From Halobacteriota archaeon (GTDB lineage Archaea > Halobacteriota > Syntropharchaeia > DAOWMC01): a stretch of DNA of 57,254 nucleotides. The notes beneath the pieces were generated by a model. The model searched no databases. It was not told the DNA's origin and saw nothing but the letters and a program-made list of their open reading frames with translations. The stretch lies in NCBI GenBank assembly GCA_034190245.1, contig JAXHTJ010000002.1, positions 1 through 57,254 on the forward strand, read 5' to 3'. Position 1 is the first letter of the stretch. Every line of letters begins with the position of its first letter. Of the stretch, positions 23,895-53,565 are shown piece by piece. A program made the position numbers and the translations under genes.

Positions 23895-23949
23895 ATAAAT
23901 CACTCCATGTTTACATCATCAGTCTATTTTTGTGATGTTACCTCTAGAC

Positions 23950-23988
23950 ATACCTGATTCCATGACCAGATATATAAAATTTTTGGCC
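23950..23988 (-). promoter_or_regulatory. Shared promoter-like motif, copy C (BRE/TATA plus conserved proximal box)
   Basis: The minus strand reads GGCCAAAAATTTTATATATCTGGTCATGGAATCAGGTAT. It aligns with copies at 36044-36081, 47148-47186 and (plus strand) 29854-29886. Confidence 0.35.
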
Positions 23989-24010
23989 ACAATTTCCTGT
24001 CAGTGAAGAG

Positions 24011-26242
24011 TCAGGCCGAGACTTCGAGCTTCGCATAGTCATGGAAGCTGTTTTCGCTAGCAGAGGCATCCAGAATCAAGAATGCAAGCTGATCATTACC
24101 GTTTATATAGCTGTCAATTCCACTTGTAGCACTCCACTCAAGCAGGAAGTCTGCATTTCCTGAGTCAGAATCCTTGTAGCCGGTTTCACCACCATCCCAG
24201 TTATTCGTATCATAATTGAAGACATAAAGCCTTAGAGTGTGTGATCCATCACCGTATCCTTCCCATGTAAACGAGAGCTCATCAATGGATGAAACACTCT
24301 CATCGATCCAGAAGTGGATTATCATTGTGCTCTCATCACCTCCGCTTTCATCGGGATTGATGTATCTGTTGGAGTCAGAATCTCCGCCAGTCGCATCCGA
24401 GTAGCTCAACCTTGTGTAAGCATCAGCCGCTACATCACTCACTTCTGTGTCACATTCCGATGGAAGCGTTGCCAGTGTGCCACCCTCTCCATTTAGGTCG
24501 TTCCAGTTATCCGAGTAGGTGCCGTATGCTCTGAAGTATGATCTTCCGTCAGTTGCATCGTAAGTTCTCGTCGTAGGTGGTTCTGGTGCGGTAGTCGCAG
24601 TGTGACTTACAGGTGTGCCGTTTATATTCCCGGTGGCATCTACGGTACGTGTAGAGATTGTGTGGCTCTCACTTGCGCTAAATCCGGATGCGTTGTAACT
24701 GGGTGAAGATGTGTTGGTCTTCCACACAGAGTCTATATAGACCATAACATGGCTGAAATCACTATCATTTGGATTTGTCCAGACCCAATTGATGTATGTT
24801 TGAGCGTACGTGTTGTTGGAAAGCCCTGTTACACTTGCAGGAGGTGTTGTATCAGGTCCTGGAGTTGGTGTGGGTGTAGGTGTAACTGTGGCCGTTGAAG
24901 ATGTACCTCTTGAGAATGATATCTCCGATCCCTTCACAAGAATGTCTACGGCTAAATTTGAGGTATAGTTGACGGTCACATTGTTACCATCAATTGAGAA
25001 TGTGATGTTTTCTACATGAGAGAGTGAGTTGTTCCATAACTCTGGATATGAGGTATAGATCGTGAGACTGAGATTTGTTGCTTCAACAGAAGTGGACGTG
25101 CCCTCGATATATTTTGCTACCAGCGTCCTGGGATCTGGCGATCCAAATGTACTTTCTGTTGCGTTGGTCCAGATTATATTTACGCCATCTCCACTCACCA
25201 TTGACTGAGGCATTTCTGTATACGAGTAATTGTCCCATGAGTAGTTCTGTATCGAGAGCCCATGCTCATAAACAAGCGTAGGAGAGTTATGGAAGTAAAA
25301 ATAATTTGGGGAGAATGATATGGTGCTGGTGGTGTAATTGAAGCTCACGTTACTCTCTATCACATTCTTAATCGTCAGATCGTCAAAATATATCCGTCCT
25401 GTGGAGGGGGCTGCGTCATTATCCTGAATATAAACGATCCGATCTACCGATTCATAACTCCCCCACTTGCTGTTCCAGTCGGCACCGATAGGAAATTCGT
25501 ATTGATGCCAGTTGCTATCGATTGAGTACATATCCTGATAAGGACTATTTATCCAGTTTGTATCTGTGAGATTCTCCTGGGTTCCCCATAACCTGTAGAG
25601 AAGAGAATGTCTGGAGGAACCAGTTCCATATGCAACTCCGATCGCCTGTATCTCTGCTTCAGTATCTCCCCTGATCCACACTGACATAGTGGTGTTTGCA
25701 GTGAGTGTAAATGGTGTAAATGCTTGCTCTTGCCAATCGTTTCCTGAAATGGTGAGCGCATACGTTCCATTGTACGCCGTCGTGCCAACAGAGACATTAG
25801 TGGGTGATGAATGCTGCGTGCTCCCATTTACGCCATTGTATGAAACGAGCACAACATTACCGGGAGTTTCATAGTCCTCGTCAAACATGGTTGTACTTGT
25901 TTGGGTTGTATAATCTACACGTATCCATCTATCATTTTTAAGAGATAGCTCCCCTGCACTGCTTTGAGTCGGGTTTCTGAATACCACTCTACTCGGATAT
26001 GAAGCTCCCATATGTATGACAGTTGCTTTAGGAAAATCGTTAACAACAGAATCCTCTATATTGGTTTTAAGTTTCAAGAAGTCATCGTATACCTCCACAA
26101 GATGGTCACTTTCAACCTTCCTATTCCACTCCGGCACCTGATACGTCTGAACAAGTCCAAGAAAGATGACGGCTATCGCTAAAAGAAGTATTGCACCGAT
26201 AAGCTCCGATACGGCATCATCATCTTTTAATAGATTTTTCAT
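24011..26242 (-). CDS. Large surface protein with an archaeal type IV pilin-like (class III signal peptide) N-terminus
   Basis: The N-terminus is MKNLLKDDDAVSELIGAILLLAIAVIFLGLV: a charged leader followed by a hydrophobic helix, as in archaeal pilin/DUF1628-type N-termini. It also has a TPTPTPTPGP linker, an Fn3-like segment and many N-x-S/T sequons. It starts 3 nt after the platform gene. Confidence 0.6.
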   Translation of the reverse strand: MKNLLKDDDAVSELIGAILLLAIAVIFLGLVQTYQVPEWNRKVESDHLVEVYDDFLKLKTNIEDSVVNDFPKATVIHMGASYPSRVVFRNPTQSSAGELSLKNDRWIRVDYTTQTSTTMFDEDYETPGNVVLVSYNGVNGSTQHSSPTNVSVGTTAYNGTYALTISGNDWQEQAFTPFTLTANTTMSVWIRGDTEAEIQAIGVAYGTGSSRHSLLYRLWGTQENLTDTNWINSPYQDMYSIDSNWHQYEFPIGADWNSKWGSYESVDRIVYIQDNDAAPSTGRIYFDDLTIKNVIESNVSFNYTTSTISFSPNYFYFHNSPTLVYEHGLSIQNYSWDNYSYTEMPQSMVSGDGVNIIWTNATESTFGSPDPRTLVAKYIEGTSTSVEATNLSLTIYTSYPELWNNSLSHVENITFSIDGNNVTVNYTSNLAVDILVKGSEISFSRGTSSTATVTPTPTPTPGPDTTPPASVTGLSNNTYAQTYINWVWTNPNDSDFSHVMVYIDSVWKTNTSSPSYNASGFSASESHTISTRTVDATGNINGTPVSHTATTAPEPPTTRTYDATDGRSYFRAYGTYSDNWNDLNGEGGTLATLPSECDTEVSDVAADAYTRLSYSDATGGDSDSNRYINPDESGGDESTMIIHFWIDESVSSIDELSFTWEGYGDGSHTLRLYVFNYDTNNWDGGETGYKDSDSGNADFLLEWSATSGIDSYINGNDQLAFLILDASASENSFHDYAKLEVSA

Positions 26243-26245
26243 CTT

Positions 26246-28285
26246 TTAACCTATGACAAAATTGAATACAACATAAGCTATGGCAACCATTATCACCGAG
26301 TGTTTTATTCCTGCATATCCGCTACCCTCTCCCATCTCACCGGCGATGAGTCCGGAGAAGAATCCCTGTATCACGGCTGCATGGAAGAAGAGTCGGTTGT
26401 ATAATTCAACATCAAAGCTCTGCTCCGGGATTTTAAAATTACTCGTCATCTCAGGATCGTCGGGTAAGATGGTTAAAAATGATGACGAGAGGATATATAG
26501 TATAACCAAAAAGACTATAAACGATATATATATCAGTATCATATAAGTGGACATATCAGCCGATCTTGCTCGCTTGAGCCTCTCACCAATTTCGGAATCT
26601 TTAGCAGCGATGCTAAGTACTTCTCTTATATTTCCAGTCGCCTCACTTGCCCTTGTGATAAGAGTTATTGTCCGTGAGATGGCAGTCGTTTTTACACGCC
26701 TCTCAAATTTAACGAGTGATTCGGTAGTTCCTCTCCCCCAAGAAATATCTTTCCAGATTATCTTTATCTCAGAGCTCAGGATACCCAAATTTGAGTCTGC
26801 CAGCATTCCAATGGCCCTTGAAAGGGTTATACCGGCTTCATTGGTACTGGCAAGCCTCTTTAAGAAGTTTGGTATCGCACTCTCTATCTTTCTTATCTTC
26901 ATCCTCCGCATCTCGTAAAATAATGTAAATGGTGCGAGTAGTATGAGAATCGTAATTACGATGGGGCCATCCAGAATATCGATTATTCCAGTACCTGTTG
27001 AAAAAGCAATACCCGAAGCTGGTCTTGAGACTGAATCAAGTGCAAAGGCAGGTGATCGAGTTAGAACCACGAAGACTAAATATAATATTGAGACTGGTGC
27101 GCTGAAGAAGATACTATGTGACGGTTTCTCGTAGAAATGCTTGAATGGGTCTTTCAGCATTTTTTCCATCCTTGCCCTCTTATCCACCATCATCAGCTCT
27201 TTGAACAATGCATCATCATACTCTGATCGCAAACTCGTCTCCAATACATCATCATATTCATCAAGTTCTTTTGACCTGACGTATGTATGAGCAGATCCTT
27301 CCTTGTCGGATATCGAGATGATGCTTAACAGAATAATGAACATAACCGAGCCTACCGGAACCAGTATATATATGATCATCTCGATCGTCCTTGAAGATCC
27401 GGAGCCTGCTATCCCCATCACTATGAGAATAGTTATCATAAACAAAGGACCTGCAACAAATGCGGTGACGTAGCTCTCCGCAACCATCCCAAGCGTATCA
27501 AGATAGCTCTTCTGTTCTTCTAAAGCATCGCTTTGATACTGCTCAGATTTGCTTGCAAAATAGGCTGTGATATCTCCACCGCTATCTATCACTGTGATCA
27601 GGCTGTCGATGAAATCCTTGAATTTTCCCGATGGAGTTCTCTCGCCTGCGTTATAAAGTGCATTCATCACATCCATACCAAAGAAAGTCATATCCCTTAC
27701 GATGAACTCCACCTCTTCTGCCGCATCCATAAATATATGGGTATGCTCACTGAGTGATTTGAAGATATCAATGATGTTCATGCCGCCTTTACTCATTGCA
27801 TGCATATAAGCGACAGAGTAAGGTAGTGATGCATCGATTCCTGTTCTTCTCACTGATGCTTTAAAGGATGGATACCACATAAGTAAGCGGTAAGTGAAGA
27901 AACTGAGTATTATCGGGAGTGACAGCGCCATTATCAACAAAAATATCCCCTTATGTGAAAGTGCAAAGTAGAATAGGCATCCACCAGCAACACCTCCGAC
28001 AACGGCGATAAGAAAGGTATAAAAATAAACATAAGAGACATAAGTCTCGACAGTTTTTGGTATATGCGCCTGTCTAAGACTGGCCTTCAGTCCTGAGTAC
28101 CGTTCTCTTCTCTCTTCAGCCCATCTACCGAATAATTTGATCGCAGGCGCATCAATTCTTTGAAGGACATTCTCATCAGACAAGCCCTTCCTCTTAGCTT
28201 TATCATCAATCTTTTCAGAGAACTTGTCATCATCCAGACCATCTAAAAAGTTGGCTCCCTTACCAGTTATTTTCAGCTCACTCAC
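26246..28285 (-). CDS. FlaJ/TadC-like type IV pilus/archaellum platform membrane protein
   Basis: 679 aa with two T2SS-F-like repeats, each a soluble helical part followed by TM helices. It overlaps the ATPase gene by 8 nt. Confidence 0.75.
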   Translation of the reverse strand: MSELKITGKGANFLDGLDDDKFSEKIDDKAKRKGLSDENVLQRIDAPAIKLFGRWAEERRERYSGLKASLRQAHIPKTVETYVSYVYFYTFLIAVVGGVAGGCLFYFALSHKGIFLLIMALSLPIILSFFTYRLLMWYPSFKASVRRTGIDASLPYSVAYMHAMSKGGMNIIDIFKSLSEHTHIFMDAAEEVEFIVRDMTFFGMDVMNALYNAGERTPSGKFKDFIDSLITVIDSGGDITAYFASKSEQYQSDALEEQKSYLDTLGMVAESYVTAFVAGPLFMITILIVMGIAGSGSSRTIEMIIYILVPVGSVMFIILLSIISISDKEGSAHTYVRSKELDEYDDVLETSLRSEYDDALFKELMMVDKRARMEKMLKDPFKHFYEKPSHSIFFSAPVSILYLVFVVLTRSPAFALDSVSRPASGIAFSTGTGIIDILDGPIVITILILLAPFTLFYEMRRMKIRKIESAIPNFLKRLASTNEAGITLSRAIGMLADSNLGILSSEIKIIWKDISWGRGTTESLVKFERRVKTTAISRTITLITRASEATGNIREVLSIAAKDSEIGERLKRARSADMSTYMILIYISFIVFLVILYILSSSFLTILPDDPEMTSNFKIPEQSFDVELYNRLFFHAAVIQGFFSGLIAGEMGEGSGYAGIKHSVIMVAIAYVVFNFVIG

Positions 28286-29831
28286 TTATACATACCATCC
28301 CTTCAATTTCTTCTAAAACCGCATCTGGGTTAGTGAAGTATGATTGAACGACGCTCGAGAAATCTTTGTAGTTTCTGATCTCTCTCTCAACCATATATTC
28401 CAGAATTTTGTGCCTGTTCAGAAGCTCCATATCCAGTTCATCCCAGCTCCATCCCCTCTGCTCCATGATATCTCTTAGAATGTATGACTCACTAGGTCTT
28501 TCGTAAGTATCCGAGACCGGGTCCCACCGGAATACCTCATTGATTCTAATATCGTCGCTTCCTGGTTCAAATCCGAGAAACTCAACTATTGATTGAGCAC
28601 GCCTGACACGTTTTCCCCCCACATATGTCATTATCTGAATTGACATAAGATTCAACGACTGGAGCATGGCTCTTGGAACGTTGATCGGATCGTTCTCCAG
28701 GCGACTTATCGCCTCCTCAACACTTCCGGCGTGCATCGTTGAATAGGTGGTGTGTCCTGTCGACATAGCCTGAAACAACGTGAGTGCTTCACTGCCTCGC
28801 ACCTCACCAACGATCATGTACTCCGGACGTTGCCTCAATGCCTGACGGAGTAGTTCGTACATACCGATTTCGCCTTCACCACCCTTCGCAAACGATTCTC
28901 TTGTAATGCTTGCGATCCAATTCTCGTGATGTAACGTAAGTTCATGTGTATCCTCTATTGTTACGATCTTTGACATCGGCGGTATGAAGAGTGATACTGC
29001 ATTGAGACTCGACGTTTTACCCGAAGCCGTTCCACCGACAAATATGAGGCTCCTGTTGTTCTCTATTGCAAGCCACAGGTAAGCAATCGCTTCCAGAGGA
29101 AATGTATTGAAATCGATTAGATCGACCGGAGTGAACGGCTCTTCCCTGAATTTTCTGATCGTGAAAGATCCACCGCGAAGTGTAACCTCCCTTCCAAGGG
29201 ATGCCTGTAGCCTGGAGCCATCCGGCATCGTGGCATTCACGAGCGGATTACCAATCGATATGTGCTTGCCACTCTGTTGAGCAATATTTATTATAAAGGA
29301 GTCGAGGTGCTTCTCGCTGAAGACTATATTTGTCTTGATGTTCTGGTATCTTCTGTGGTACAAAAATATGGGTACATCAGTTCCATCACAGGATATATCT
29401 TCTATAAATGGATCCCTTATCAGTGCATCTATCCTCTTAAATCCGATATAATTCCTCTGTATGTAGTACAACAATTTATAGAGTGATTCCGGTGCCAGAC
29501 GTAGTCTGAAGTTACCAACGATCTCAAGCACCTTCTGCGTAAGAAGACTCTTTTTGTTCTCATCTTTTTCCAGTGTCAGAACGTCCAGTAGATCTTCATA
29601 TATCCTCTCAAGCAGCGTCTTCTCAAATGATGTTAGCTTCGGCTCAGCAACATAGTACAGATACTCCTTCTTATTCTCGTTGTACAGGATCACGATGAAT
29701 GCATAGGGTTCGTTGACCCAATACTGTTCTACTTCGGTGTAGCCCTCCAATCCATCAAAAACCGTCAGTTTACCGTCCTCTTCTGGATTATAGGGTGGCA
29801 GATAAAACTCTTTTTCAACTCTTCGGGGCAT
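28278..29831 (-). CDS. FlaI/ArlI-like type II/IV secretion family ATPase
   Basis: Walker A is FVGGTASGKTSSLN, Walker B/Asp box is MIVGEVRG, and the His box is TGHTTYSTMHA. The N-terminal domain is FlaI-like. Confidence 0.85.
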   Translation of the reverse strand: MPRRVEKEFYLPPYNPEEDGKLTVFDGLEGYTEVEQYWVNEPYAFIVILYNENKKEYLYYVAEPKLTSFEKTLLERIYEDLLDVLTLEKDENKKSLLTQKVLEIVGNFRLRLAPESLYKLLYYIQRNYIGFKRIDALIRDPFIEDISCDGTDVPIFLYHRRYQNIKTNIVFSEKHLDSFIINIAQQSGKHISIGNPLVNATMPDGSRLQASLGREVTLRGGSFTIRKFREEPFTPVDLIDFNTFPLEAIAYLWLAIENNRSLIFVGGTASGKTSSLNAVSLFIPPMSKIVTIEDTHELTLHHENWIASITRESFAKGGEGEIGMYELLRQALRQRPEYMIVGEVRGSEALTLFQAMSTGHTTYSTMHAGSVEEAISRLENDPINVPRAMLQSLNLMSIQIMTYVGGKRVRRAQSIVEFLGFEPGSDDIRINEVFRWDPVSDTYERPSESYILRDIMEQRGWSWDELDMELLNRHKILEYMVEREIRNYKDFSSVVQSYFTNPDAVLEEIEGMVCISE

Positions 29832-29853
29832 TAGATGGTAATTTTATTGAACT

Positions 29854-29886
29854 AATATATATACTACATGGCCATAAATCACGTAT
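29854..29886 (+). promoter_or_regulatory. Palindromic TATA (TATATATA, 29856-29863) between divergent operons, plus the AAATCACGTAT box (29876-29886); motif copy D
   Basis: The minus-strand ATG (29831) lies 24 nt from the TATA and the plus-strand ATG (29891) lies 27 nt from it. Neither has an SD, which is consistent with leaderless divergent transcripts. Confidence 0.35.
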
Positions 29887-29890
29887 ATTT

Positions 29891-30787
29891 ATGGGCATAA
29901 GGTTAATTATACTTACCATTCTTAGTACAACTTTGGTGATCGAATTTATATTACATAGGACCCCAACCGGGATTGATTCACTTGATTCTGTCATAGGGGG
30001 TGGGTTCCCATCGGGATCACTTGTGTTGCTTTTAGGAGATGCCGGTGCTGGTAATTTCGAATTTGCATACACATCTGCAATCATGATATCCAATCTAAAA
30101 CGCAAGAACAATGGGCATTCAGAAGACGATGAACTGAAAATTCCCGAAAAAGTCTGCTATATCTCATTCACAAAGTCAGAAGCAGATATAATGGGGGAGC
30201 TCACACGTATCTTCAATCCCCAGGATGTCGATATTCTATTAAAAAATTTGTCTTTTAAGGATTTATCCACCATCTATCACCATCACTCCATCACACCACC
30301 TACATGGATATCGGAGCCGGAGAAGCAGACCCTGACTTCTATTAAAGGTAACAATCTCGGTCTTCTGGAAGAACTTATAACATATTTAAATTCGAATGCC
30401 GCAAACAGCCTTGTGATTCTTGATTCACTAACAAACCTCGTCAGGGCCTCTTACAGCTCGATAGAATGGCAGGACCTGATATCATTTTTTGAGGGTCTTC
30501 AGAGGGTTTCCAAGAGATGGGATGGAGTTATTTATGCAATCCTCGGTGCAAAGATACTCGATGAGAATAAAGAGTCTGAACTCGCTGATTGTGCAGATGG
30601 TGTACTGATCTTTGATTGGATGCAAAAAGGGGAATTTTCAAGGCAACAGATCATGTATGTCAAGAAGTTCAGAGGTCTCCTGCCCCAACTGACGAAGGAC
30701 AACATATCCAAATTTGAGACGAGTGTCACCATACCGAATGGATTTGAGATGAAGAATGTGAGGCTAATAAGGGGGCACAGTAGATGA
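29891..30787 (+). CDS. KaiC/RecA-superfamily protein with a degenerate Walker A and an N-terminal hydrophobic segment
   Basis: PTGIDSLDSVIGGGFPSGSLVLLLGDAGAGNFEF has no GK[ST]. A Walker-B-like strand reads SLVILDSLTNL. The N-terminus is IRLIILTILSTTLVIEFIL. The ORF-track start at 29795 overlaps the divergent ATPase gene, so I use the ATG at 29891. Confidence 0.6.
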   Translation: MGIRLIILTILSTTLVIEFILHRTPTGIDSLDSVIGGGFPSGSLVLLLGDAGAGNFEFAYTSAIMISNLKRKNNGHSEDDELKIPEKVCYISFTKSEADIMGELTRIFNPQDVDILLKNLSFKDLSTIYHHHSITPPTWISEPEKQTLTSIKGNNLGLLEELITYLNSNAANSLVILDSLTNLVRASYSSIEWQDLISFFEGLQRVSKRWDGVIYAILGAKILDENKESELADCADGVLIFDWMQKGEFSRQQIMYVKKFRGLLPQLTKDNISKFETSVTIPNGFEMKNVRLIRGHSR

Positions 30788-31473
30788 AGAGGGTTGGAAC
30801 AGGGATAACAGGGGTAGATAAGATGATAGATGGAGGCATCCCCGAAGGGCACATAGTAGCGCTCGTTGGGCCTTTTGGTGCCGGAAAAACGACCTTTGCA
30901 CTCCAATTCATAAGGGATGGACTCATAAATGATCAAAGCTGCCTTTATATTAGTCTGGAAGAGAGCGATGATAGACTCCTGAAGACTGCACTCAATTACG
31001 GGTGGGACTTAAAACCATATGTTGATAGCGAAAAATTCTCGATATTCAAAGTCGAAGCCGCCGATATAACAAACTCGTTAATACGCCTTGAGAGCACCTT
31101 TCCTACCATGATAAAATCCACAGGGGCAAGTAAGGTAGTAATAGATCCAATTACTCTCTTTGAGATGTTATTCGATGATGAAGCAAAGAGAAGAAAGAAT
31201 GTCTTCGACCTGTTAAAGATAATAAGCGATACAGGAGCAACTACGCTGATCACATCGGAAGTTAATAAGGATCGGACCGGTTCCCGGTACGGATTGATTG
31301 AGTACGTTGTTGACGGTGTCATCATATTACATAAGATCAGGGATGAATTCCGCAGGGTGCACCACGCCATCCAGATAGACAAGATGAGATGGTCAGATCA
31401 CTCAAAGGAGATAAAACCGTATGAGATCACGAAAGAAGGGGTAGAAGTTTATATGAAGTCGAAGGTATATTGA
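30784..31473 (+). CDS. Single-domain KaiC-like ATPase (ArlH/FlaH-size)
   Basis: GITGVDKMIDGGIPEGHIVALVGPFGAGKTTFALQF carries an intact Walker A, and VVIDPITLF is the Walker B. It is 229 aa and its start overlaps the stop of the upstream gene (ATGA). Confidence 0.8.
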   Translation: MKRVGTGITGVDKMIDGGIPEGHIVALVGPFGAGKTTFALQFIRDGLINDQSCLYISLEESDDRLLKTALNYGWDLKPYVDSEKFSIFKVEAADITNSLIRLESTFPTMIKSTGASKVVIDPITLFEMLFDDEAKRRKNVFDLLKIISDTGATTLITSEVNKDRTGSRYGLIEYVVDGVIILHKIRDEFRRVHHAIQIDKMRWSDHSKEIKPYEITKEGVEVYMKSKVY

Positions 31474-31483
31474 GGGGAGAAAG

Positions 31484-32083
31484 ATGAGTCAGATGATGGA
31501 TGATGTACTATACAGTAAGATCGAGATGGCTCTGTTCAGAAGTCATCTGGAAGCGATCGTATCGGTCACAATTGCATCCGCAGATATCTTAAGCGCGGAT
31601 ATGGCACTGCTCAAGTTTTTAGTCAAGGATAAGAAGATGAAGGGATCCATCATCTGCGTGGATCGCGATTATAAACAGATGGAGGAGCTGGCAAAGAGTA
31701 TTGATCTGGGAGGTGATGATCTCTATTACATCGATGCTGTAACTTTATACAATGGCAAAAACCCGGACGCAAGTGCAAGTGACAAAACTGTCTTTATAGA
31801 CTCTCCTTCGGATCTCACATCGATGGATATTGCCATTACTGATATGATAGAGAAACTTGAGAATGGTTTCTTATTGTTCGATTGCCTTTCGTCTTTAAAA
31901 CTGTATAACGATTCAAAAAAGCTCGGAATATTCATGCATGACCTCGCCTCAAAACTGAGACTGTATGGTGTATTCGGCGTAATTTTACTGATAGAAGAAG
32001 ATTCTGATACCTGGCTGCACAGCATAATCAAGGCTTTTTGTGATAAGAATGTCGTTTTAAAGACGGGTAGGGATATAACATGA
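31484..32083 (+). CDS. KaiC/RecA-like pseudo-ATPase, DUF835-like (no P-loop)
   Basis: It is collinear with the C-terminal domains of the 36136 and 39657 proteins. Examples: GSIICVDRDY matches PGLCISRKNS, and IDSPSDLTSMDIAITDMIEKLENGFLLFDCLSSL matches IHPDDLFTKLQSTLINFIKEANDSVILLDGLEYL. The P-loop position reads IASADILS. Confidence 0.45.
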   Translation: MSQMMDDVLYSKIEMALFRSHLEAIVSVTIASADILSADMALLKFLVKDKKMKGSIICVDRDYKQMEELAKSIDLGGDDLYYIDAVTLYNGKNPDASASDKTVFIDSPSDLTSMDIAITDMIEKLENGFLLFDCLSSLKLYNDSKKLGIFMHDLASKLRLYGVFGVILLIEEDSDTWLHSIIKAFCDKNVVLKTGRDIT

Positions 32084-34717: not shown

Positions 34718-34719
34718 AA

Positions 34720-35769: not shown

Positions 35770-36043
35770 TTTTTATCCTCCATTGTATGTTTAAGTTTCT
35801 AAAAACATGCCTCTCCAACAATTAAGAGATAAGTATAATTTTACGTCTGACTGTTTACTTTTCATCAGCTTGCACTCGGATTCTGATCTTTTAAGTTCAG
35901 TAACCCCTTTGGGGTATTTTTTATTTCAAACATTTCATTTAAAAGTCGGTTTTTTTACGTCCATCGTTTATCCAATCCCCCATTAACATTGTATTTTCAT
36001 TCATCGCTGGTTCTCTGTTTAAGTGATATTAACCCCCACAATA

Positions 36044-36081
36044 ATACGGGATTTATGAACACATATATATACATTTTGACC
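36044..36081 (-). promoter_or_regulatory. Shared promoter-like motif, copy A
   Basis: The minus strand reads GGTCAAAATGTATATATATGTGTTCATAAATCCCGTAT, followed by a leader homologous to that of copy B (GTATTATT..GGGGTTA...GGGGATTGGAT..ATGGAC). Confidence 0.35.
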
Positions 36082-36135
36082 GTCAATTACCAGATCCAAT
36101 GCAAAATTTCATAATTTGAGATAATTGAGAACGGC

Positions 36136-38169: not shown

Positions 38170-38185
38170 ACTCCTTTTGAAGATA

Positions 38186-39613: not shown

Positions 39614-39656
39614 ACCAGATTAAAACCCCCATCAGTCCATGGCACTTTTTAAACCT

Positions 39657-41357
39657 CTATTTTCCCTTAAATAGCACCATCTCCTTCTTCAGACCATGAA
39701 ATCTCTGTGGATCAAGGGCATTTGAATCAAGAGGGATTATCAATCGAGATTTTGACATCATCAGATCGTCATTTATCGCCTGGACAAATTTTAAAACAGA
39801 AGAAAAATCGTTCTGCGAGATCAGGTACTCAAGACCATCCATGAGTACAACACCATCATTTGCCTCTTTTATGAAATTGACAAGTGTTGATTGTAGCTTG
39901 GTGATGAGATCAGTGGGATGTATACAGGTCACTTCCGTTACTTCATTTCGAGTTAGCCAGATGACGGGTGTCTTCTCTAACTTATACCTCTCCTTGATCC
40001 TGATAGGATTCTGTCTCGAGATGCATAGCCCCGGTTTACCGTGTTTTACTAGATCCACAAATACCTCGAAACCGATATCGGATGAATCACTATCAATGAG
40101 GTAAGCATTCCCATTATCTATCTCAAACTCCATATCAGTCTCAACTCTCTCATCTTCTTCTACTGGTTTTATATCGAGACCAGAAAGCTTTGATATGTCC
40201 TCTAGTGTGATTATAAGTCCTTTCTTCTCTTTTCCTTCCCTTAAGACGACAGTAGAGACATTTAGAGGTATTCTGGGGCCCTTTGCTTTCTTGAACTTGA
40301 GGCTGAAGTCATTCTTAGTCATCATCACCATCTCCACCCCTAGAATTGAAGATAGATGCTTATTTTCATACTTTTCGACTTCAAGTAGCTTTTTTGCGCT
40401 TTTATTCATGGTTATTATAGTTCCGGAGAGGTCGGTTGAAATTGTTGCAATCGGGGATTCCTCAACCAACTTTTCTAACCTTTCTTTATATACAAGAAGC
40501 TCCTCTTCCGCCATTTTTCGATCGGTGATATCCATTATAAAGCCTTCCAGAGCATTGAGGCCCCCATCAGGCGAAAATACCCCTAATCCTTTCTCCAGAA
40601 CCCATCTCTCCTCATCATCGGTAGAATTGATACGATAAGTGATTTCGAAAGGACGTTTCTCTTCCACTGCCGAGTCGATCTCAGAAAGGACCATCTCCAG
40701 ATCGTCCGGGTGTATAAGTTCGGCATAAGAGCTTTCTTTCAGGTCAAGGGGCTCGTAGCCAGAGAGTTTTATGCAGCCCTCGCTAACGAATATCATTGTC
40801 CTCTCTTCGTCGTTTTCGCACCTGTATGCCATGCCGGGAAGGTTACCCATCAGAGTTGTGATGGTTCGCTGGCTTTCGCGCAGCCTGATCTTTGTTTCAG
40901 CAAGTCTACCCTCGGTGCCCAACTGTTTGATAGCCCGACGTACCACCATCGGTAAAAGATCCATGAAACGGGCGTCTTTCACAATATAGTCGCGGGCACC
41001 GAGCTTCATCATATCCACCGCCACCCTCTCATCGCCCTGCCCTGTCATTACTACGAACGGTACCTGGACCTTCTTCTCGATAAGCTTCTCAACGATCTCT
41101 TTTCCGGTCATATCCGGTAAGCCGTAGTCCAGCAATAGTAAAATATTCTGGTTATTACCTATCTTTGCAATAGCTTCAGTACCGTTTGTTGCTAAGTCAC
41201 ACTGAAAACCGGCCCTCTTGAGATGCTTTGCAATCAGGCGGCCTAAACCTTCGTCATCTTCGACTATAAAGAGGGTTCTTTTAACCTCGGCATTTCCTTC
41301 ATCCTTATCGATCATCGACTCTATAGACCTCTGTCGGATTACGACCTCATTACTCAC
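39657..41357 (-). CDS. Response-regulator receiver-PAS-PAS-DUF835-like domain protein
   Basis: It is a paralog of the 36136 gene (LFIVEDDEG, LLLDYGLPDM, KHGKPGLCISRQNP, PVIWLTRNEV, VVLMDGLEYL). It overlaps the upstream gene by 8 nt. Confidence 0.75.
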   Translation of the reverse strand: MSNEVVIRQRSIESMIDKDEGNAEVKRTLFIVEDDEGLGRLIAKHLKRAGFQCDLATNGTEAIAKIGNNQNILLLLDYGLPDMTGKEIVEKLIEKKVQVPFVVMTGQGDERVAVDMMKLGARDYIVKDARFMDLLPMVVRRAIKQLGTEGRLAETKIRLRESQRTITTLMGNLPGMAYRCENDEERTMIFVSEGCIKLSGYEPLDLKESSYAELIHPDDLEMVLSEIDSAVEEKRPFEITYRINSTDDEERWVLEKGLGVFSPDGGLNALEGFIMDITDRKMAEEELLVYKERLEKLVEESPIATISTDLSGTIITMNKSAKKLLEVEKYENKHLSSILGVEMVMMTKNDFSLKFKKAKGPRIPLNVSTVVLREGKEKKGLIITLEDISKLSGLDIKPVEEDERVETDMEFEIDNGNAYLIDSDSSDIGFEVFVDLVKHGKPGLCISRQNPIRIKERYKLEKTPVIWLTRNEVTEVTCIHPTDLITKLQSTLVNFIKEANDGVVLMDGLEYLISQNDFSSVLKFVQAINDDLMMSKSRLIIPLDSNALDPQRFHGLKKEMVLFKGK

Positions 41358-42570
41358 TATTCTCGCCTCTCTTATTTTTATCTCTCACAAATGGCAAAGA
41401 TACAAAGAATTTTGACCCCTCACCTTCAGTGGATTCAACCCGGATCCCCCCGTTGTTGCGGCTCAAAATCTTGGAGACAATGCTCAGTCCCAGACCCTCA
41501 CCTTCAGTGGATTTTGGATCAAGCCTGCGGAATATTATGAAGATATCTTTTTGATTCTTCTCGGGAATGCCGAGTCCATTATCCTCAACACAATAGACGA
41601 CCTCTCCTCCTTTTCTCTCCCCCGTGATCTTTATAATCCCATGCTTCTCAGGATCACGATACTTCAGTGCATTGTCAACCAGATTGGAGAAGACCTGGTT
41701 GATCTGTACAGCGTCCCCTATGCAAGGAGGGAGATCACCTGTTACTACACTCATCCCTGCTTCTTTGACCCTGAACTCGAAGCTCTTTTTAATATCTGAT
41801 AACATCGCGTTCATGTCCAGGTCTTCAAAGTTAAGGGCAGCACGTCCCAGCCGGGAAAGCCGCAAGAGACCCGTAAGTAAAGTATCCATCTTGGAAACAC
41901 TTGCCTGGATGAACTCAAGTGTATCAGGAATGTCCTCTTCAAAGATGGGTGAAAGGTTCTCCCACACATCTTGCGGAATCTCTACATCATTTAAAATTGA
42001 AGCCAATTCTTCCATGGTGTAGCAGAGTTCCTTGCTGAAGCCCTGGACATTCACAAGCGGTGAACGCAGGTCGTGGGATGTTACATGGATGACTGTTTCC
42101 AGTTCTTTGTTCTTTTCTGTGATCTCTTCGTTCAACTTCGCAAGCGCTCTCTCTGCCCTCTTGCTCTCCATTACAAGGTGCGTCAGTTCAGTGACATCCT
42201 GCACTGCAAAGAGCGCATTGAAGTCATCTTCATCTTGTGCAGGCACTGCCGTTATGATGGTGTGCTGAATCATTGGTTCGCCGTTTGGAAGTTTTGAAGA
42301 AAAGAGCTGTTTGTGGAGTTGGGAAGAGAATATTGTCGGAGGACCCCCTTCAAATATGGAGTCTATTCGGATATGATATTTCGGATCTTTTAAGTGTGGG
42401 AAACGCTCTCTCAGATCCGTACCGATGATATCTTCTCTATTTATCCCTGTCCAGTCTTCAAGACAACTGTTCCAGAAGATAACTTTGTAATCTCTGTCGA
42501 TCACACACATCCCCACCGGAGCGGAATCAAGCACATCAAATCCTTGCATCGAGATCTCTTGCTTCATCAT
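41350..42570 (-). CDS. PAS-sensor histidine kinase
   Basis: One PAS domain (VGMCVIDRDYKVIFWN), the H-box TSHDLRSPL, the N-box FSNLVDNALKY, and DNGLGIP...GEGLGLS. Its start overlaps the stop of the CheC-like gene (ATGA). Confidence 0.85.
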   Translation of the reverse strand: MMKQEISMQGFDVLDSAPVGMCVIDRDYKVIFWNSCLEDWTGINREDIIGTDLRERFPHLKDPKYHIRIDSIFEGGPPTIFSSQLHKQLFSSKLPNGEPMIQHTIITAVPAQDEDDFNALFAVQDVTELTHLVMESKRAERALAKLNEEITEKNKELETVIHVTSHDLRSPLVNVQGFSKELCYTMEELASILNDVEIPQDVWENLSPIFEEDIPDTLEFIQASVSKMDTLLTGLLRLSRLGRAALNFEDLDMNAMLSDIKKSFEFRVKEAGMSVVTGDLPPCIGDAVQINQVFSNLVDNALKYRDPEKHGIIKITGERKGGEVVYCVEDNGLGIPEKNQKDIFIIFRRLDPKSTEGEGLGLSIVSKILSRNNGGIRVESTEGEGSKFFVSLPFVRDKNKRGENSE

Positions 42571-43184
42571 ATTGTGTTAACTCCCTCGCAGACGATGATA
42601 GATTCGACTGCTTCGAGGAGCATGTCGAAACTGCTCAGTTCAAAAAATAAGGCAACATCGCCTTCAATTTTTAATTCTTCAATCAAAAACCTTGTCCGTG
42701 CAAGCAGGATAACAGTATCAGATCCAATTTCCGGGGGCAAAAGATTTGTAGAGTCTCCTTCTACATAGCTTGGAACAGAATATTTGAGATTGAACTTGAG
42801 TATGTTGCTTATGGATCCTACAACGGTATTCAGAACTATGTTACCGACTTCATTTAGAGTGCCCGCACGGATTGAATCGAGATTCAGATCATCTCCTTCA
42901 TCACCGGTAAATGCAGTTATTAGCTTCGATGCACTTTCTGCGGGAAATATTAATTCCGCTGTTCCCGAAGTGTCTCCCTTAAAACCCAGTTTAACTGATG
43001 CAAGTCGATTTTCGGTATTTGTTTCCATCTCTCTTTGCAACTCGTCAGGAGATAGCACCTTTATATATGGAACTTGCAGTTGAATGTGCGAATTTAGCAT
43101 TGTGTTCAGCACATCTGCACCATGTCCGACTCCGATGTTTATGAGCTCCCTTAATGCATCTATCTGTTTGTCTGTGGGCTGCAT
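42567..43184 (-). CDS. CheC-family CheY-P phosphatase-like protein
   Basis: DALRELIN...(22 aa)...P is an exact match to the CheC consensus [DS]-x3-E-x2-N-x22-P. A second pseudo-repeat, GTLNEVGN...(22 aa)...P, has Gly at the first position. Confidence 0.7.
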   Translation of the reverse strand: MQPTDKQIDALRELINIGVGHGADVLNTMLNSHIQLQVPYIKVLSPDELQREMETNTENRLASVKLGFKGDTSGTAELIFPAESASKLITAFTGDEGDDLNLDSIRAGTLNEVGNIVLNTVVGSISNILKFNLKYSVPSYVEGDSTNLLPPEIGSDTVILLARTRFLIEELKIEGDVALFFELSSFDMLLEAVESIIVCEGVNTI

Positions 43185-43558
43185 AGCTCCTCGTTTTTAT
43201 TAGAACTGAGGACCTTTTGAAGTGCTCCAAGCATTTCATCTTCTTTCGGTACTTTATTCAGAAAATCGGCGACCCCAAGTTCGAAACATTTCGTCTTCGT
43301 TGTTTCCTGGATGTCTGCTGAAAGGACAATCACAGGAATAGAAAGTCCTTTTTCTTTAAGTTTCTCAAGTACCCCAAAACCGTCCATTTCTGGCATTAGA
43401 ATGTCTAAAAAGATACATTCCGGTTTTTCTGCTACTGCCTTTTCAAGAGCTTCAACTCCGTCTGAAGCTTCAATTACTTCATGGCCTTCGGTTTTTAAGG
43501 CTTTCTTTACAATCTGGCGAATCAACATGGAATCATCTACAACTAAAATTCGGGCCAT
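43160..43558 (-). CDS. CheY-like single-domain response regulator
   Basis: ILVVDDSMLIRQ, FLDILMPEMDG, and VIVLSAD. It overlaps the CheC-like gene by 25 nt. Confidence 0.8.
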   Translation of the reverse strand: MARILVVDDSMLIRQIVKKALKTEGHEVIEASDGVEALEKAVAEKPECIFLDILMPEMDGFGVLEKLKEKGLSIPVIVLSADIQETTKTKCFELGVADFLNKVPKEDEMLGALQKVLSSNKNEELCSPQTNR

Positions 43559-43634
43559 AGAGATCCCCCTCCTTCAAACCAAATGCCATTTAGTTTTTTC
43601 ATGTTTCATTTCCCTCCATTTTTTGTTTATTTCA

Positions 43635-44084
43635 TCAAATCTCTATCCCATCGATCTCTGGCACTTCCACAACGGAAAGGAAGAGTCCGAATTGATGAAT
43701 AGCCTCAACGAACTTCTCATAGTCTACGGGTTTGGCGATGTAGTTGCTGCACCCCAGAGAATGACAACGCTTAATCTCCCTCGGATCGTCTGTTGTGGTA
43801 AGCATCGTCACAGGAAGTTTCTTTAACTCTTCGTCCTTTTTTATCTGCCTCAGGACCTCGATACCATCAACCTTTGGCATTCTGATGTCCAGAAGTAGCA
43901 GATAAGCTGTACCATCCTCGCGGTGTGGTGGTTCACCCCTTTTGAAGAGGAAGTTCAATACCTCTTCCCCATTCTTGAAATGGATGATCTCGTTTGTTAC
44001 ACCCGACCGCTCAAAGTTCCTTTTGATAAGGGAGACATGCCCTACATCGTCATCTGCAATCAAAATTACGATCCTACTATTCAT
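43635..44084 (-). CDS. Single-domain response regulator (Rcp1-like)
   Basis: MNSRIVILIADDDVGH..LLLLDIRMPKVDG..LTTTDDP..KP. I chose the start by alignment to the paralog at 46052-46507. It overlaps the upstream kinase stop by 8 nt. Confidence 0.8.
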   Translation of the reverse strand: MNSRIVILIADDDVGHVSLIKRNFERSGVTNEIIHFKNGEEVLNFLFKRGEPPHREDGTAYLLLLDIRMPKVDGIEVLRQIKKDEELKKLPVTMLTTTDDPREIKRCHSLGCSNYIAKPVDYEKFVEAIHQFGLFLSVVEVPEIDGIEI

Positions 44085-46050
44085 GATTCTCACCTCCATC
44101 ATCTTTATTGATTGCACCAGGTAGCGATACATAGAATTTTGATCCAACACCCTCCTCCGATTCCACCCAGATCTTTCCATTATGGCGGCTCAGTATCTTT
44201 GAGACGAGGCTCAGTCCCAGACCTTCGCCTTCAGTTGCTTTTGGATCGAGACGGTGAAATATCTCGAAGATACTCTTCAGATGCTGTTCTGCGATACCAA
44301 TTCCATTATCTTCAATACAATAGATGACCTCCCCCTCCTTTCTTTCCCCTGTGATATTTATAATCCCCCGCTTCTCAGGATCACGGTACTTCAGTGCATT
44401 GTCAACAAGATTGGAGAAGACCTGGTTTATCTGCACAGCGTCACCTATGCAGGGGGGCAATTTGCTCTTCTTTATACTCACATCTGCCTCTTTGATCCTG
44501 AACTCAATGCTCTTCTCAATATCGTATACTACTTTGTCCATATCCAGATTCTCAAACTTAAGGGCTGCACGCCCCAGACGCGAAAGCCGAAGTAGTCCAC
44601 TAAGAAGTGAATCCATCTTAAGTATGCTCGTCTGAATGAACTCCATGATCTCAGGAATGTCCTCTTCGAAGATGAAGGAGAATCTCTTCTGCGCCTCCTG
44701 AGGAATCTCAACCTCCTGTAAAATACTCTTCAACTCTTCCATTGAGTAACCGAGTTCTTTGCTGAAGCCCTGGACGTTCACAAGGGGTGAGCGAAGATCA
44801 TGGGATGTGGCATAGACGATCTGTTCCAGCTCTCTGTTCTTTTCGGTAATCTCTCTACTTGCCCTTTCCAGCTCCTCCTCCGCTTTCTTGCGCCTTGTAA
44901 TGTCCCTGATAAATATAAAATCGGCAGGCATTCCTTCATATTTAATCGGCCCGACATTTACGTTTATCGTCAGGATCTTACCATCCTTTCTTATAGCCTG
45001 TGTTTCATAATAGTTCACAATGCCCTCTTTGCCCTTTCCATCTTCATAATCTTCCATATCAATCTCTTTAAAATCCGGGGAGATGTATCTCGAAAAGTCT
45101 GTTCCGATCATCTCCTCTTCATCATACCCAAACATCTGTGCCATTCTTCTATTGATAAATTTAAAAACGTTATCCTGAACGATTACAATGCCGTCATTCG
45201 CCCGCTCGATCAGATTCCTGTATTTATCCTCTGACCTCTGTAGCGCTTCCTCTGACCACTTCCGTCTGGAGATATCCGATACGAAGCCTTCCAAAGCCTC
45301 AAGCTCTCCTTCGGAAGAGTAGACTCCGGACCCTTTTTCCCAGACCCATTTCACTTCGCCGCTTGTGGCATTGATACGATATATGATCTCATACGGCCGT
45401 CTCTCTTCCACTGCCGAGTTGATCTCATAAAGGACCATCTCACGATCTTCCTCATGAATAAACTGTAGATAAGAGATCCCTCCCAGATCAGAGAGCTGGT
45501 ATCCTGTTAGCCTTATACTGCCCTCGCTTGCAAATAAAATAGTCCTATCTTCGTCGTTTAGAGACCGGTATGCCATGCCAGGAAGGTGCTTCATCAAGTT
45601 GGAGATGGATCGTTGACTTTCGTGTAATCTGGCCTCGGTTTTGGCCAATTGCATCTCGGTTTTTATCTGTTCAGCCACGCGACCCACAACCCGGGGCAAG
45701 AATTCGACAAAACCTGTATCCTTTATAATGTAGTCACGGGCACCAAGCTTCATCATCTCCACCGCAATCTTTTCCCCACCCTGCCCTGTCATTATAACGA
45801 ATGGAACTGTATGTCCTGTTTCGATAAGTTCCTCAACGACTTCTTTTCCTGTCATATCAGGTAAGCCGTAATCCAGCAGGAGCAGGTTCAAGTGGCTACT
45901 GTTAACCTTTTCAATAGCCTCGGCGCCATCTCGTGCGGTTTCAGTCTGATAACCGATCCTCACAAGGTTCTTTTTGATAAGGTGACTTAACTTTTCATCG
46001 TCTTCTACAATAAGAATGCAATCTCCCGTAATTGTGGTTGTTTCACTCAT
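44077..46050 (-). CDS. Hybrid sensor histidine kinase (REC-PAS-PAS-HisKA-HATPase)
   Basis: ILIVEDDEK, LLLDYGLPDM, two PAS domains, the H-box TSHDLRSPL, the N-box FSNLVDNALKY, and DNGIGIA...GEGLGLS. Confidence 0.85.
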   Translation of the reverse strand: MSETTTITGDCILIVEDDEKLSHLIKKNLVRIGYQTETARDGAEAIEKVNSSHLNLLLLDYGLPDMTGKEVVEELIETGHTVPFVIMTGQGGEKIAVEMMKLGARDYIIKDTGFVEFLPRVVGRVAEQIKTEMQLAKTEARLHESQRSISNLMKHLPGMAYRSLNDEDRTILFASEGSIRLTGYQLSDLGGISYLQFIHEEDREMVLYEINSAVEERRPYEIIYRINATSGEVKWVWEKGSGVYSSEGELEALEGFVSDISRRKWSEEALQRSEDKYRNLIERANDGIVIVQDNVFKFINRRMAQMFGYDEEEMIGTDFSRYISPDFKEIDMEDYEDGKGKEGIVNYYETQAIRKDGKILTINVNVGPIKYEGMPADFIFIRDITRRKKAEEELERASREITEKNRELEQIVYATSHDLRSPLVNVQGFSKELGYSMEELKSILQEVEIPQEAQKRFSFIFEEDIPEIMEFIQTSILKMDSLLSGLLRLSRLGRAALKFENLDMDKVVYDIEKSIEFRIKEADVSIKKSKLPPCIGDAVQINQVFSNLVDNALKYRDPEKRGIINITGERKEGEVIYCIEDNGIGIAEQHLKSIFEIFHRLDPKATEGEGLGLSLVSKILSRHNGKIWVESEEGVGSKFYVSLPGAINKDDGGENHE

Positions 46051-46051
46051 A

Positions 46052-46507
46052 TCAAGCTTCTTCGCCGATTACTGGCACTTTTACAACAGAAAGGAAGAGT
46101 CCAAGTTGTCTGATGGTCTCTACAAACCTATCGTAGTCGATGGGTTTGGTGATGTAGTTGCTGCAGCCAAGTTCATGACAACGTTCGATCTCCCTTGGAT
46201 CATCCGTTGTCGTTAACATCGTCACAGGTATCTTCTTCAGTTCATCATCTGATTTAATCTGCCTCAGGACTTCGGTGCCATCGATTTTGGGCATCCTGAT
46301 GTCCAGAAGCAAGAGGTAAGACACCCCATCTACACGATGAGGCAGATCTCCTCTTTTAAAGAGGAAGTTCAATACTTCCTCTCCATCCTTGAAATGGATG
46401 ATTTGATTGGTTATGCCTGACCGCTTGAGGTTCTTCTTTATCAGTGAGGCATGTCCCATATCGTCCTCTGCTATCAGTATAATGATTTCGTCACTCGTGA
46501 TTCTCAC
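46052..46507 (-). CDS. Single-domain response regulator (Rcp1-like)
   Basis: IIILIAEDDMGH, LLLLDIRMPKIDG, LTTTDDP, and KPIDY. Its stop is 1 nt from the start of the downstream kinase. Confidence 0.85.
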   Translation of the reverse strand: MRITSDEIIILIAEDDMGHASLIKKNLKRSGITNQIIHFKDGEEVLNFLFKRGDLPHRVDGVSYLLLLDIRMPKIDGTEVLRQIKSDDELKKIPVTMLTTTDDPREIERCHELGCSNYITKPIDYDRFVETIRQLGLFLSVVKVPVIGEEA

Positions 46508-46553
46508 CCCCCTCGTTTTATCTTCTATTATTCCAAATCACTGCTTTGACGAC

Positions 46554-46934
46554 TTAATTCGCCTCATTCAGACCTTTTCCTCGTGGAGGATTTTTCCCTA
46601 TTTGAGAGTAATAGCCATACTTTCGTTCAAAAAGAACGGTCCTATTCAGGTAAGCAAGAGTAGCAAGAGCAGCAGTCACAAGACCAACAATCAAATAAGC
46701 AGGTAAAATCGGGATCCCAACTGCAATAACAGCAAGACCCACAAGCAGGCTGTCAATGGCGGTACCCAGTGCCATTAGATCAAGAACGGCATAAGAAGAA
46801 TCAAGAGTGTATCTATCACCCAATCCGGAGGAAGGGGAAACCCATAAACTCCTGATGCCGATAATAAGAAATAATGCGGAAACAAGATGAAAAGCATTAT
46901 CAGAAAGCCAGCTGATAGGAATGATCGAACTCAC
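46554..46934 (-). CDS. Small integral membrane protein, function unknown
   Basis: 126 aa with 3-4 hydrophobic helices. It has a GTG start preceded by GAGAGGAGTGG, 13 nt after the sORF stop. Confidence 0.5.
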   Translation of the reverse strand: MSSIIPISWLSDNAFHLVSALFLIIGIRSLWVSPSSGLGDRYTLDSSYAVLDLMALGTAIDSLLVGLAVIAVGIPILPAYLIVGLVTAALATLAYLNRTVLFERKYGYYSQIGKNPPRGKGLNEAN

Positions 46935-46947
46935 GCCGCCACTCCTC

Positions 46948-47088
46948 TCAAGCAGCCATTCTATTCATTACAAAAAATGCCTCGGGCCACTTGTGCATCG
47001 TTTCTAATCTTTCATATTCAGCCATCAACTGCCGCATCTTCATTAATTCACTTATTAGCTGAACCTTTCTTATAGATTCATTGTCCAT
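46948..47088 (-). CDS. Unannotated small ORF (46 aa), paralog of the sORF at 23769..23894
   Basis: Hand translation gives MDNESIRKVQLISELMKMRQLMAEYERLETMHKWPEAFFVMNRMAA. GAGGGGAT lies 3-4 nt upstream of the ATG, and the shared promoter motif lies about 60-100 nt upstream. Confidence 0.4.
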   Translation of the reverse strand: MDNESIRKVQLISELMKMRQLMAEYERLETMHKWPEAFFVMNRMAA

Positions 47089-47147
47089 CAAATCCCCTCA
47101 GTTCTATATCAGCAGGGTTCACTTTTTTTTAAAATAACCCCTTAATA

Positions 47148-47186
47148 ATACGTGATTTCATGAACATATATATAATATTTTTGCAC
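47148..47186 (-). promoter_or_regulatory. Shared promoter-like motif, copy B
   Basis: The minus strand reads GTGCAAAAATATTATATATATGTTCATGAAATCACGTAT. The AAATCACGTAT 11-mer is identical to the plus-strand copy at 29876-29886. Confidence 0.35.
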
Positions 47187-48086: not shown

Positions 48087-48089
48087 CTT

Positions 48090-49457: not shown

Positions 49458-49462
49458 AAAAA

Positions 49463-53534: not shown

Positions 53535-53565
53535 GTGTTTCATTATTTTGTGCTTCCAAATCAAC

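Follow-up and report, generated by a model that had tools for sequence, protein, structure and literature searches.

A recurrent motif across the predicted start of four archaeal promoters: a candidate lineage-specific operator of KaiC-like, two-component and small-protein genes

When one short sequence recurs beside several TATA boxes of a single contig, does it mark the binding site of a regulator, or the common ancestry of the promoters that carry it? The question is raised by a 57,254-nt stretch of a Halobacteriota archaeon (contig JAXHTJ010000002.1 of assembly GCA_034190245.1, positions 1 to 57,254), hereafter the window, in which an earlier note, made from the letters of the DNA, had drawn attention to four A+T-rich intergenic sites that combine a TATA box with an 11-mer: copies A, B and C on the minus strand and copy D on the plus strand. 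The four sequences read as was claimed there, a composite pattern of both parts matches these sites alone, and Pfam scans confirm their gene context, namely a small open reading frame (sORF) followed by a membrane protein gene and a nine-gene signalling array for B, two related histidine kinases for A, a KaiC-like operon for D, and an sORF next to a pilin-like gene for C. We consider it about an even bet (a probability of roughly 0.5) that the four sites constitute an operator lying across the predicted transcription start, specific to this lineage and borne by one promoter family, through which four transcription units are co-repressed.

The window, with a G+C content of about 43%, contains an rRNA operon of archaeal 16S rRNA, tRNA-Ala and 23S rRNA at 53564-57254, and the TATATATA boxes are consequently best taken as archaeal TATA boxes, and the sites as promoters with a TFB recognition element (BRE) and a TATA box. 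The closest Rrp41 proteins, carried by metagenome-assembled genomes labelled Halobacteriota or Candidatus Syntropharchaeia, are about 80% identical to that of the window, so that the source organism is, judging from these matches, an uncultured archaeon with no near relative among sequenced genomes. The sequence of the window is also present in the Logan assembly of run SRR24907505.

Promoter B (47138-47183, minus strand), read directly and matched by both pattern and weight matrix, runs from a BRE, CAAAAA (47183-47178), through a TATA run (47177-47166) and a left element, GTTCATG (47165-47159), to the motif, AAATCACGTAT (47158-47148), and a G-box, AAGGGG (47143-47138), with a predicted start at about 47149-47146. 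Promoter A (36033-36079, minus strand), which heads the histidine-kinase pair at 35769-34720 and 34717-32753, presents a BRE (TCAAAA, 36079-36074), a TATA run (36073-36063), the motif (AAATCCCGTAT, 36054-36044) and a G-box (36037-36033); promoter C (23941-23986, minus strand), which begins about 25 nt past the stop codon of the pilin-like gene, presents a BRE (CCAAAAA, 23986-23980), a TATA box (23979-23970), a motif variant (GAATCAGGTAT, 23960-23950) and the element AGAGG (23945-23941). In promoter D (29847-29902, plus strand), which belongs to the ArlH/KaiC-like operon, TTGAACTAA (29847-29855) is followed by the palindromic TATA box TATATATA (29856-29863), by the motif where the earlier note had placed it (29876-29886), and by a predicted start at about 29885-29887.

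All four thus have the make-up of archaeal BRE/TATA promoters, with CAAAA(A) ahead of a T/A run in A, B and C, and GAACTAA ahead of TATATATA in D, and all four lie at plausible orientations and distances to genes: 57 nt from promoter B to the ATG of sORF B, 55 nt from promoter C to that of sORF C, and 4-50 nt from promoter D to the start candidates of K1, the first gene of the KaiC-like operon, with promoter A lying upstream of a broken sORF and then of the kinase genes. BRE, T/A run and motif stand in one common register in A, B and C, and a single frame is common to all four copies, consisting of BRE, TATA box, a left element nTGnyCAT, an interior AAATCnCGTAT(WW)T and, to the right, an element rich in G. 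The left element takes the form nTGkTCAT in A, B and C, whose right side is no more than G-rich (TAAGGGG, TGTGGGGG and TAGAGG). Transcription starts, predicted for all four copies from TATA geometry, fall on the GTAT or 1-3 nt past it (22-24 nt counted from the 3' end of the TATA octamer), from which it follows that the motif occupies about -16 to -2, a placement that would cover the initially melted region and the predicted start.

The recurrence of the motif is real and not a product of chance. Specificity was counted within this 57-kb contig, where AAATCMCGTAT has three exact matches (29876 on the plus strand, 36044 and 47148 on the minus strand) against a mean of 0.11 in shuffled windows, none of 100 shuffles reaching three; the 11-mer is identical in B and D, as had been stated. 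Copy C (GAATCAGGTAT, 23950-23960, minus strand) lies two positions off the 11-mer, and since the 11-mer alone shows no enrichment in the window at two mismatches (31 found versus 33 expected), this copy owes its place to its context. The composite pattern TATATAT-N3-10-CAT-N0-1-RAATCNNGTAT matches exactly copies A to D and is absent from 100 shuffles. The four sites also served to build a 15-nt weight matrix, which gives them 17.7-21.5 bits and the runner-up, an intragenic sequence without a TATA box, 15.5 bits; a scan with this matrix across the window yielded no fifth copy. We estimate that the window contains about 17 promoter regions. The motif is missing from those read directly (the rRNA promoter, the exosome/prefoldin spacer, 20700-20820, 14380-14445, 4620 and 3341) and, in agreement with the earlier note, from the promoter-like sites near 4615 and 53285. 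Within the contig it is restricted to promoters of signalling genes and sORFs, and housekeeping promoters lack it. The TCATAAA of the rRNA promoter was considered as a relative of the motif and rejected, as it stands in another register relative to the TATA box and its resemblance is probably a coincidence.

Beyond the window, the composite pattern was found at no fewer than 119 loci (at least 119) in 185,579 species genomes, and among the matches listed nearly all are chance occurrences in A+T-rich bacteria. The only methanogens among the matches listed are L037 (Methanomicrobiaceae) and L103 (Methanolobus vulcani), and both are uninformative. In these two (L037, from Methanomicrobiaceae UBA207, 6711-6739, minus strand; L103, 4475-4501, minus strand) a TATA sequence is followed by CATGAATCnnGTATTGAGG, in L037 with a start codon 12 nt further on, and the likeness to the motif is probably fortuitous. 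A stricter pattern returned four chance matches from JGI metagenomes, all of them in very A+T-rich DNA.

Copy D differs from the others in that its motif forms the left and central part of a 31-bp dyad, ATGGCCATAAAT-N7-ATTTATGGGCAT, whose 12-nt arms (ATGGCCATAAAT at 29868-29879 and ATTTATGGGCAT at 29887-29898, plus strand) are 92% complementary and enclose the 7-nt spacer CACGTAT. Its centre falls on the predicted start and it spans, by geometry, about -18 to +13; a symmetry of this type would suit a dimeric repressor, as known from archaea. When the loose dyad expression YCATA-N11-17-TATGG was run across the related loci, matches beyond the K1 promoters looked no different from background.

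Promoter D drives, by its position, a four-gene KaiC-family operon (29936-32760, plus strand) made up of the ArlH-like K1, the KaiC gene K2, the DUF7504 gene K3 and the KaiC gene K4. K1 has its called start at a GTG (29936) and an in-frame ATG at 29891, and its best family match is ArlH, at 43 bits, which is far under the family cut-off of 215 bits; K3 (31484-32083, DUF7504) gives weak matches to KaiC and DUF835 as well. Divergent from this operon is a pilus operon (24011-29831, minus strand) that encodes a PilB3-like ATPase, a PilC/T2SSF protein and a 743-aa pilin-like protein. A distance of 25 nt separates the ATG of pilB (29831, minus strand) from the one palindromic TATATATA box there (29856-29863), and the spacing between pilB and TATA box is similar in the related loci L129 and L131. 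A bidirectional promoter with a leaderless pilB mRNA is therefore possible, and the pilus operon may accordingly be under the control of D too. A leaderless micro-ORF beginning at the conserved ATGGGCATAA of D-type promoters was also considered and dismissed: its frame is not kept in L129, where there is a one-base gap, and its relation to the K1 frame varies between loci.

Homologs of K1 led to loci of two further clades, one comprising L129 and L141 (88% mutual identity) and the other L131, L138 and L127 (about 80%), and pairwise identity among the window and these two clades is 71-76%. The window and L129 agree at 72% of K1 and 76-78% of PilB protein positions, and their four-fold sites are 30-46% identical, which is to say saturated. 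The D promoters of the same pair are identical in 54 of 63 columns, with 14 of 15 in the interior of the motif and 6 of 17 in the columns that follow. Given that 14 of 15 interior positions agree at saturated silent-site divergence, the interior of promoter D is under purifying selection, and a recent origin does not suffice to explain it. The 12-nt-arm dyad of D is shared by L129; in L131 and L138 a dyad persists whose inner bases differ. Compensatory change of the inner arms (AAAT/ATTT, ATT/AAT and ATA/TAT) was entertained as further support and set aside, because it amounts to two or three A/T positions per lineage and is statistically unpersuasive.

Six K1 promoters can be aligned, and their invariant blocks are TTGAAC.AATA, the TATA region,.CATA and TATGG.CATAA..TTAA. 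Invariance thus extends beyond the motif (29847-29855 and 29890-29906 in the window), to TTGAAC.AATA before the TATA box and TATGG.CATAA..TTAA past the predicted start, and these extra blocks may be further regulatory sites. In L127 and L133, AATTGAAC occurs twice, with an inverted TTCAATT in between.

Relatives keep orthologous promoters that do not contain the motif, which argues that the motif is specific to the present lineage, at least so far as these alignments reach. An ortholog of promoter A is found in L127 (13100-13215, minus strand), flanked by a DUF835 remnant and by the ortholog of the REC-PAS-HK gene (HK, histidine kinase). BRE, TATA box and CATGTTC have been kept there, as has a vestige of the ribosome-binding site of the sORF (TAGGGGATTT, followed by ATC), and both the sORF and the motif are absent; the sORF module thus appears to predate the split of these clades and to have decayed in the L127 lineage. 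The motif co-varies, being absent from the D-type and the A-type promoter of L127 and present at both in the window, which would be the pattern expected of a lineage-specific factor and its sites, in a comparison of two genomes only. Relatives of Rrp41 (79-80% identity) gave no orthologs of site B, as synteny stops right past rrp41 in all of them.

How far can the recurrence at A, B and C be ascribed to descent? Behind B lies a 46-aa sORF (MDNESIRKVQLISELMKMRQLMAEYERLETMHKWPEAFFVMNRMAA; 46948-47088, minus strand), called as a gene (P0001), with a Shine-Dalgarno sequence, GAGGGGAT, 3 nt ahead of its ATG. Behind C lies a 41-aa sORF (MSEEYEMKIRLLNEIMELHQMVAESVDSENKNKRILGFFAG; 23769-23894, minus strand; P0241 in the protein library) with the Shine-Dalgarno sequence GGAGTGAT, which is solitary and convergent with moeA (22531-23745, plus strand). 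The two peptides are 33% identical over 39 aa without gaps, and are reciprocal best matches in a tblastn search of the six frames of the window (E about 8e-4). Behind A lies a degenerate sORF (35865-35971, minus strand) that has retained the Shine-Dalgarno sequence GGGGGAT, has ATA in place of its start codon and is disrupted in frame in an A7 run; with one A added it would read INDGRKKNRLLNEMFEIKNTPKGLLNLKDQNPSAS, which includes NRLLNEMFEIKN, a match to sORF C (through KNRLLNEMFEI). On this evidence promoter, leader and sORF form a paralogous module in each of A, B and C, the sORF being intact in B and C and broken in A, and the recurrence of the motif among them is accordingly in part a matter of common descent. 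The promoters of A and B are identical at about 34 of 40 positions by hand count, and their leaders cannot be aligned; the paralogous kinases behind them are 43-50% identical at four-fold sites.

The sORF peptide is predicted to fold as a single long helix (predicted local distance difference test score, pLDDT, 83). The family has no match in Pfam, a search of 5.8 billion proteins returned the query only, a profile search of 1.84 billion cluster representatives recovered only the two sORFs of the window and one repetitive 1319-aa protein, and tblastn found no sORF in the loci of the relatives. The sORFs consequently look to be an orphan family, with no homolog found outside this organism in these searches.

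In the reading that we favour, the four sites would be copies of one archaeal promoter family, and one sequence-specific dimeric transcription factor would occupy the start site and block the recruitment of RNA polymerase. The units so co-repressed would be the ArlH/KaiC-like operon, perhaps with the divergent pilus operon that shares its TATA box; the large two-component array of which sORF B is the first gene; the two kinase genes under promoter A; and the solitary sORF C. The sites are real, non-random, contig-specific, cast in one frame and under purifying selection, and the dyad of D is centred on the predicted start; we infer that a factor exists, that it acts as a repressor, and that its sites have not spread to many unrelated genes across the genome. 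Of what the earlier note had proposed, similarity in the promoter region is genuine, yet for A, B and C it continues into the leader and the small ORF; a regulator site in addition to the basal promoter is favoured by the promoter elements, the purifying selection and the dyad of D, and disfavoured by the lack of a dyad in A, B and C; and a regulon agrees with the contig-wide restriction to signalling genes and sORFs, with the qualification that A, B and C are paralogous, so that four independent acquisitions are unnecessary.

Several observations count against a start-site operator. No dyad was found in copies A, B and C, which have the left element and the interior alone in common with D. 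The interior is unstable, since L141, whose K1 is 88% identical to that of L129, shows changes at 5 of 15 interior bases, its interior, AGATCACATAT, being identical to that of the window at 11 of 15 positions, and the interiors of L131, L138 and L127 are unrelated to it, with the promoter frame kept. Pfam found no transcription factor genes inside the four transcription units, and the sole candidate DNA-binding gene seen near them, at 50754-51059, is known by a sub-threshold match. Given the common frame and the frequency of segmental duplication, descent and ordinary promoter constraint could account for much of the similarity. Finally, the start sites are predicted only, and the evidence spans 57 kb of the genome.

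The foremost rival reading is that a strong promoter cassette has spread by duplication, together with the sORF modules and the signalling genes and without a dedicated regulator, the interior serving core-promoter needs of this lineage (as a promoter-proximal or initiator region, or in the fit to TFB and RNA polymerase) and possibly being homogenised by gene conversion. We regard this as a serious contender, if less probable than not. A good deal speaks for it: A, B and C are paralogous modules; the succession of TG..CAT, interior and T..GGG is common to the four copies and to the K1 promoters of the relatives; segmental duplications are many in the region, including one of 791 bp at 99.2% identity; the interior differs between related lineages under a constant frame; and A, B and C have no dyad. 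Archaeal promoters usually require A+T richness only, however, whereas this interior has a G+C core (CACG or CCCG), and other promoters of the contig, that of the rRNA included, do not use the interior. Nor would core-promoter duty readily account for an interior conserved at 14 of 15 positions where silent sites are saturated, or demand a dyad centred on the start in D and its orthologs.

An unlikely reading is a promoter class read by a paralog of TFB, TBP or TFE, similar to a sigma regulon, in which the reader or linker of that TFB variant would contact the interior near the start. The four promoters resemble one another in the BRE and in having a long TATA run, as would suit such a class, and regulation of this type is documented in haloarchaea for TFB2/TFBb at the hsp5 promoter, where a promoter subset has common core features and common regulation (PMC2396416). 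In that case, however, specificity lay in the BRE and the TATA box, what lies 3' of the TATA box being irrelevant (PMC2396416); moreover, the window contains no TFB or TBP gene, and the dyad of D would be left unexplained. Still less probable is an element acting at the RNA level, that is, a 5' leader with a conserved structure, or a signal resembling a riboswitch, whose transcription would begin at a promoter lying farther upstream. The D sequence could form a 12-bp hairpin, and the inner arm bases vary between lineages with complementarity retained. Yet the left arm begins 4 nt past the TATA box, and a transcript from promoter D therefore cannot contain the hairpin; A, B and C have none; the leaders fold no better than shuffled sequences (z from -0.9 to +1.4); no Rfam match appears up to E = 1 in 23000-48000, rRNA and tRNA being all that is reported at gathering thresholds; and the apparent compensatory changes, at two or three A/T positions, may be chance. 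As for the possibility that an A+T-rich word recurs by accident beside TATA boxes, the unenriched 11-mer at two mismatches (31 versus 33 expected) and the occurrence of the composite pattern in many unrelated A+T-rich bacterial genomes would fit it, but exact 11-mers at 3 versus 0.11 expected, the composite at 4 versus 0, the same register to BRE and TATA box in each copy and the conservation of an ortholog exclude it.

Operators of the kind proposed are known. The consensus of the Thermococcales glycolytic motif (TGM) is TATCAC-N5-GTGATA, and the present sites do not match it: they read CATnAAATCnCGTAT and onward, have ATCAC alone in common with it and lack the GTGATA arm. Binding of Tgr/TrmBL1 at TGM operators in the start region, downstream of the TATA box, represses by blocking the recruitment of RNA polymerase (PMC4158304). 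Copy D resembles the TGM in its dyad symmetry and departs from it in sequence (ATGGCCATAAAT-N7-ATTTATGGGCAT); the part common to the four sites is AAATCnCGTAT, three of the four copies are without a dyad, the window showed no gene of the TrmB family, and the organism is an uncultured Halobacteriota archaeon in place of a member of the Thermococcales. MDR1 of Archaeoglobus fulgidus and Phr of Pyrococcus furiosus likewise have operators over the start and prevent polymerase recruitment, as cited in PMC4158304. The likeness lies in an operator downstream of the TATA box and over the start, which is here a predicted one; the difference lies in those regulons being small or confined to one operon, with repressors that are known and sites mapped by experiment, and the present one being predicted from sequence. 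Archaeal promoter-proximal and initiator elements, which belong to every promoter, are poorly defined in sequence and rich in A+T. They occupy the same position, about -12 to +1, whereas what we describe is a specific 11-15-mer with a G+C core that is missing at the other promoters of the contig that were read.

The genes under promoter D invite a comparison of their own, which concerns the genes and not the motif. PilB3/PilC genes stand beside KaiC-like genes in every relative examined, divergently in L129, L131 and L138 and as a co-directional operon in L134 (24011-32760 in the window; L129, 1398-10177; L131, 2-7174; L134, 8894-15409; L138, 2158-6621). In the archaellum, ArlH interacts with ArlI, a PilB-like motor ATPase (bioRxiv 10.1101/2021.03.19.436134). 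The likeness is that of a KaiC-family gene, whose best if sub-threshold match is ArlH, paired with a gene for a PilB-family ATPase and kept so in the relatives; the difference is that PilB3/PilC and a giant pilin-like protein take part here and that the cluster has no archaellins or other arl genes. This suggests, by analogy, a pilus machine with a KaiC-like partner, comparable to ArlH-ArlI.

Under promoter B, sORF B is followed after 13 nt by an MntP-like membrane gene and then by a nine-gene two-component array that continues down to 36136 (together 36136-46934, minus strand, by Pfam), in the order MntP-like, REC, REC-PAS-HK, REC, REC, CheC/CheX, PAS-HK, REC-PAS-DUF835, REC-PAS-HATPase and REC-PAS-DUF835. 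The two REC-PAS-DUF835 response regulators lie at 36136-38382 and 39657-41357 (minus strand). In their 3' halves (32778-33568 and 34760-35550) the adjacent histidine-kinase genes behind A are 99.2% identical over 791 bp, against 67-76% for the remaining kinase and receiver paralogs of the region, and this points to duplication or gene conversion within the array in the recent past. At 47361-50215 (minus strand) lies an operon of proteasome alpha, SBDS, Rrp4 and Rrp41 with no rrp42 after it, nor is there one in L121, L122, L136 or L137, and in the window the signalling array begins directly past rrp41. The gene at 50754-51059 (plus strand) encodes a 101-aa winged-helix protein with sub-threshold similarity to Sta1/Lrs14-like and Crp-type helix-turn-helix proteins, and no winged-helix gene of this kind was seen beside prefoldin in L136 or L137.

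The two-component systems of archaea mostly lack DNA-binding outputs, and few of their links to transcription are known. For archaeal signalling, KaiC-like ATPases have been put forward as hubs, and DUF835, an output domain of response regulators in archaea, is described as an inactivated KaiC-like domain (PMC5847659). Taken together with the partnership of ArlH with a PilB-family ATPase, these points make a functional link between the gene sets plausible. A bolder and, in our view, doubtful extension is that the lineage possesses a regulon of its own, in which the start-spanning operator couples the ArlH/KaiC-like and type IV pilus genes, the two-component arrays with their response regulators ending in inactivated KaiC domains, and the orphan single-helix micro-proteins, the last being components of the KaiC/two-component signalling hub, such as modulators of kinases or KaiC-like ATPases, and in which the operator has co-evolved with its factor. 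Such co-evolution would explain why sister lineages keep the promoters without the motif. The scope is modest, being that of one contig, four sites and a well-known type of mechanism, in a lineage without a cultured member, and the finding most likely adds a lineage-specific case to the operators already known to overlap transcription starts. If true, the shared operator would offer a testable transcriptional link between the KaiC-like/pilus module, the REC-PAS arrays and the orphan micro-proteins.

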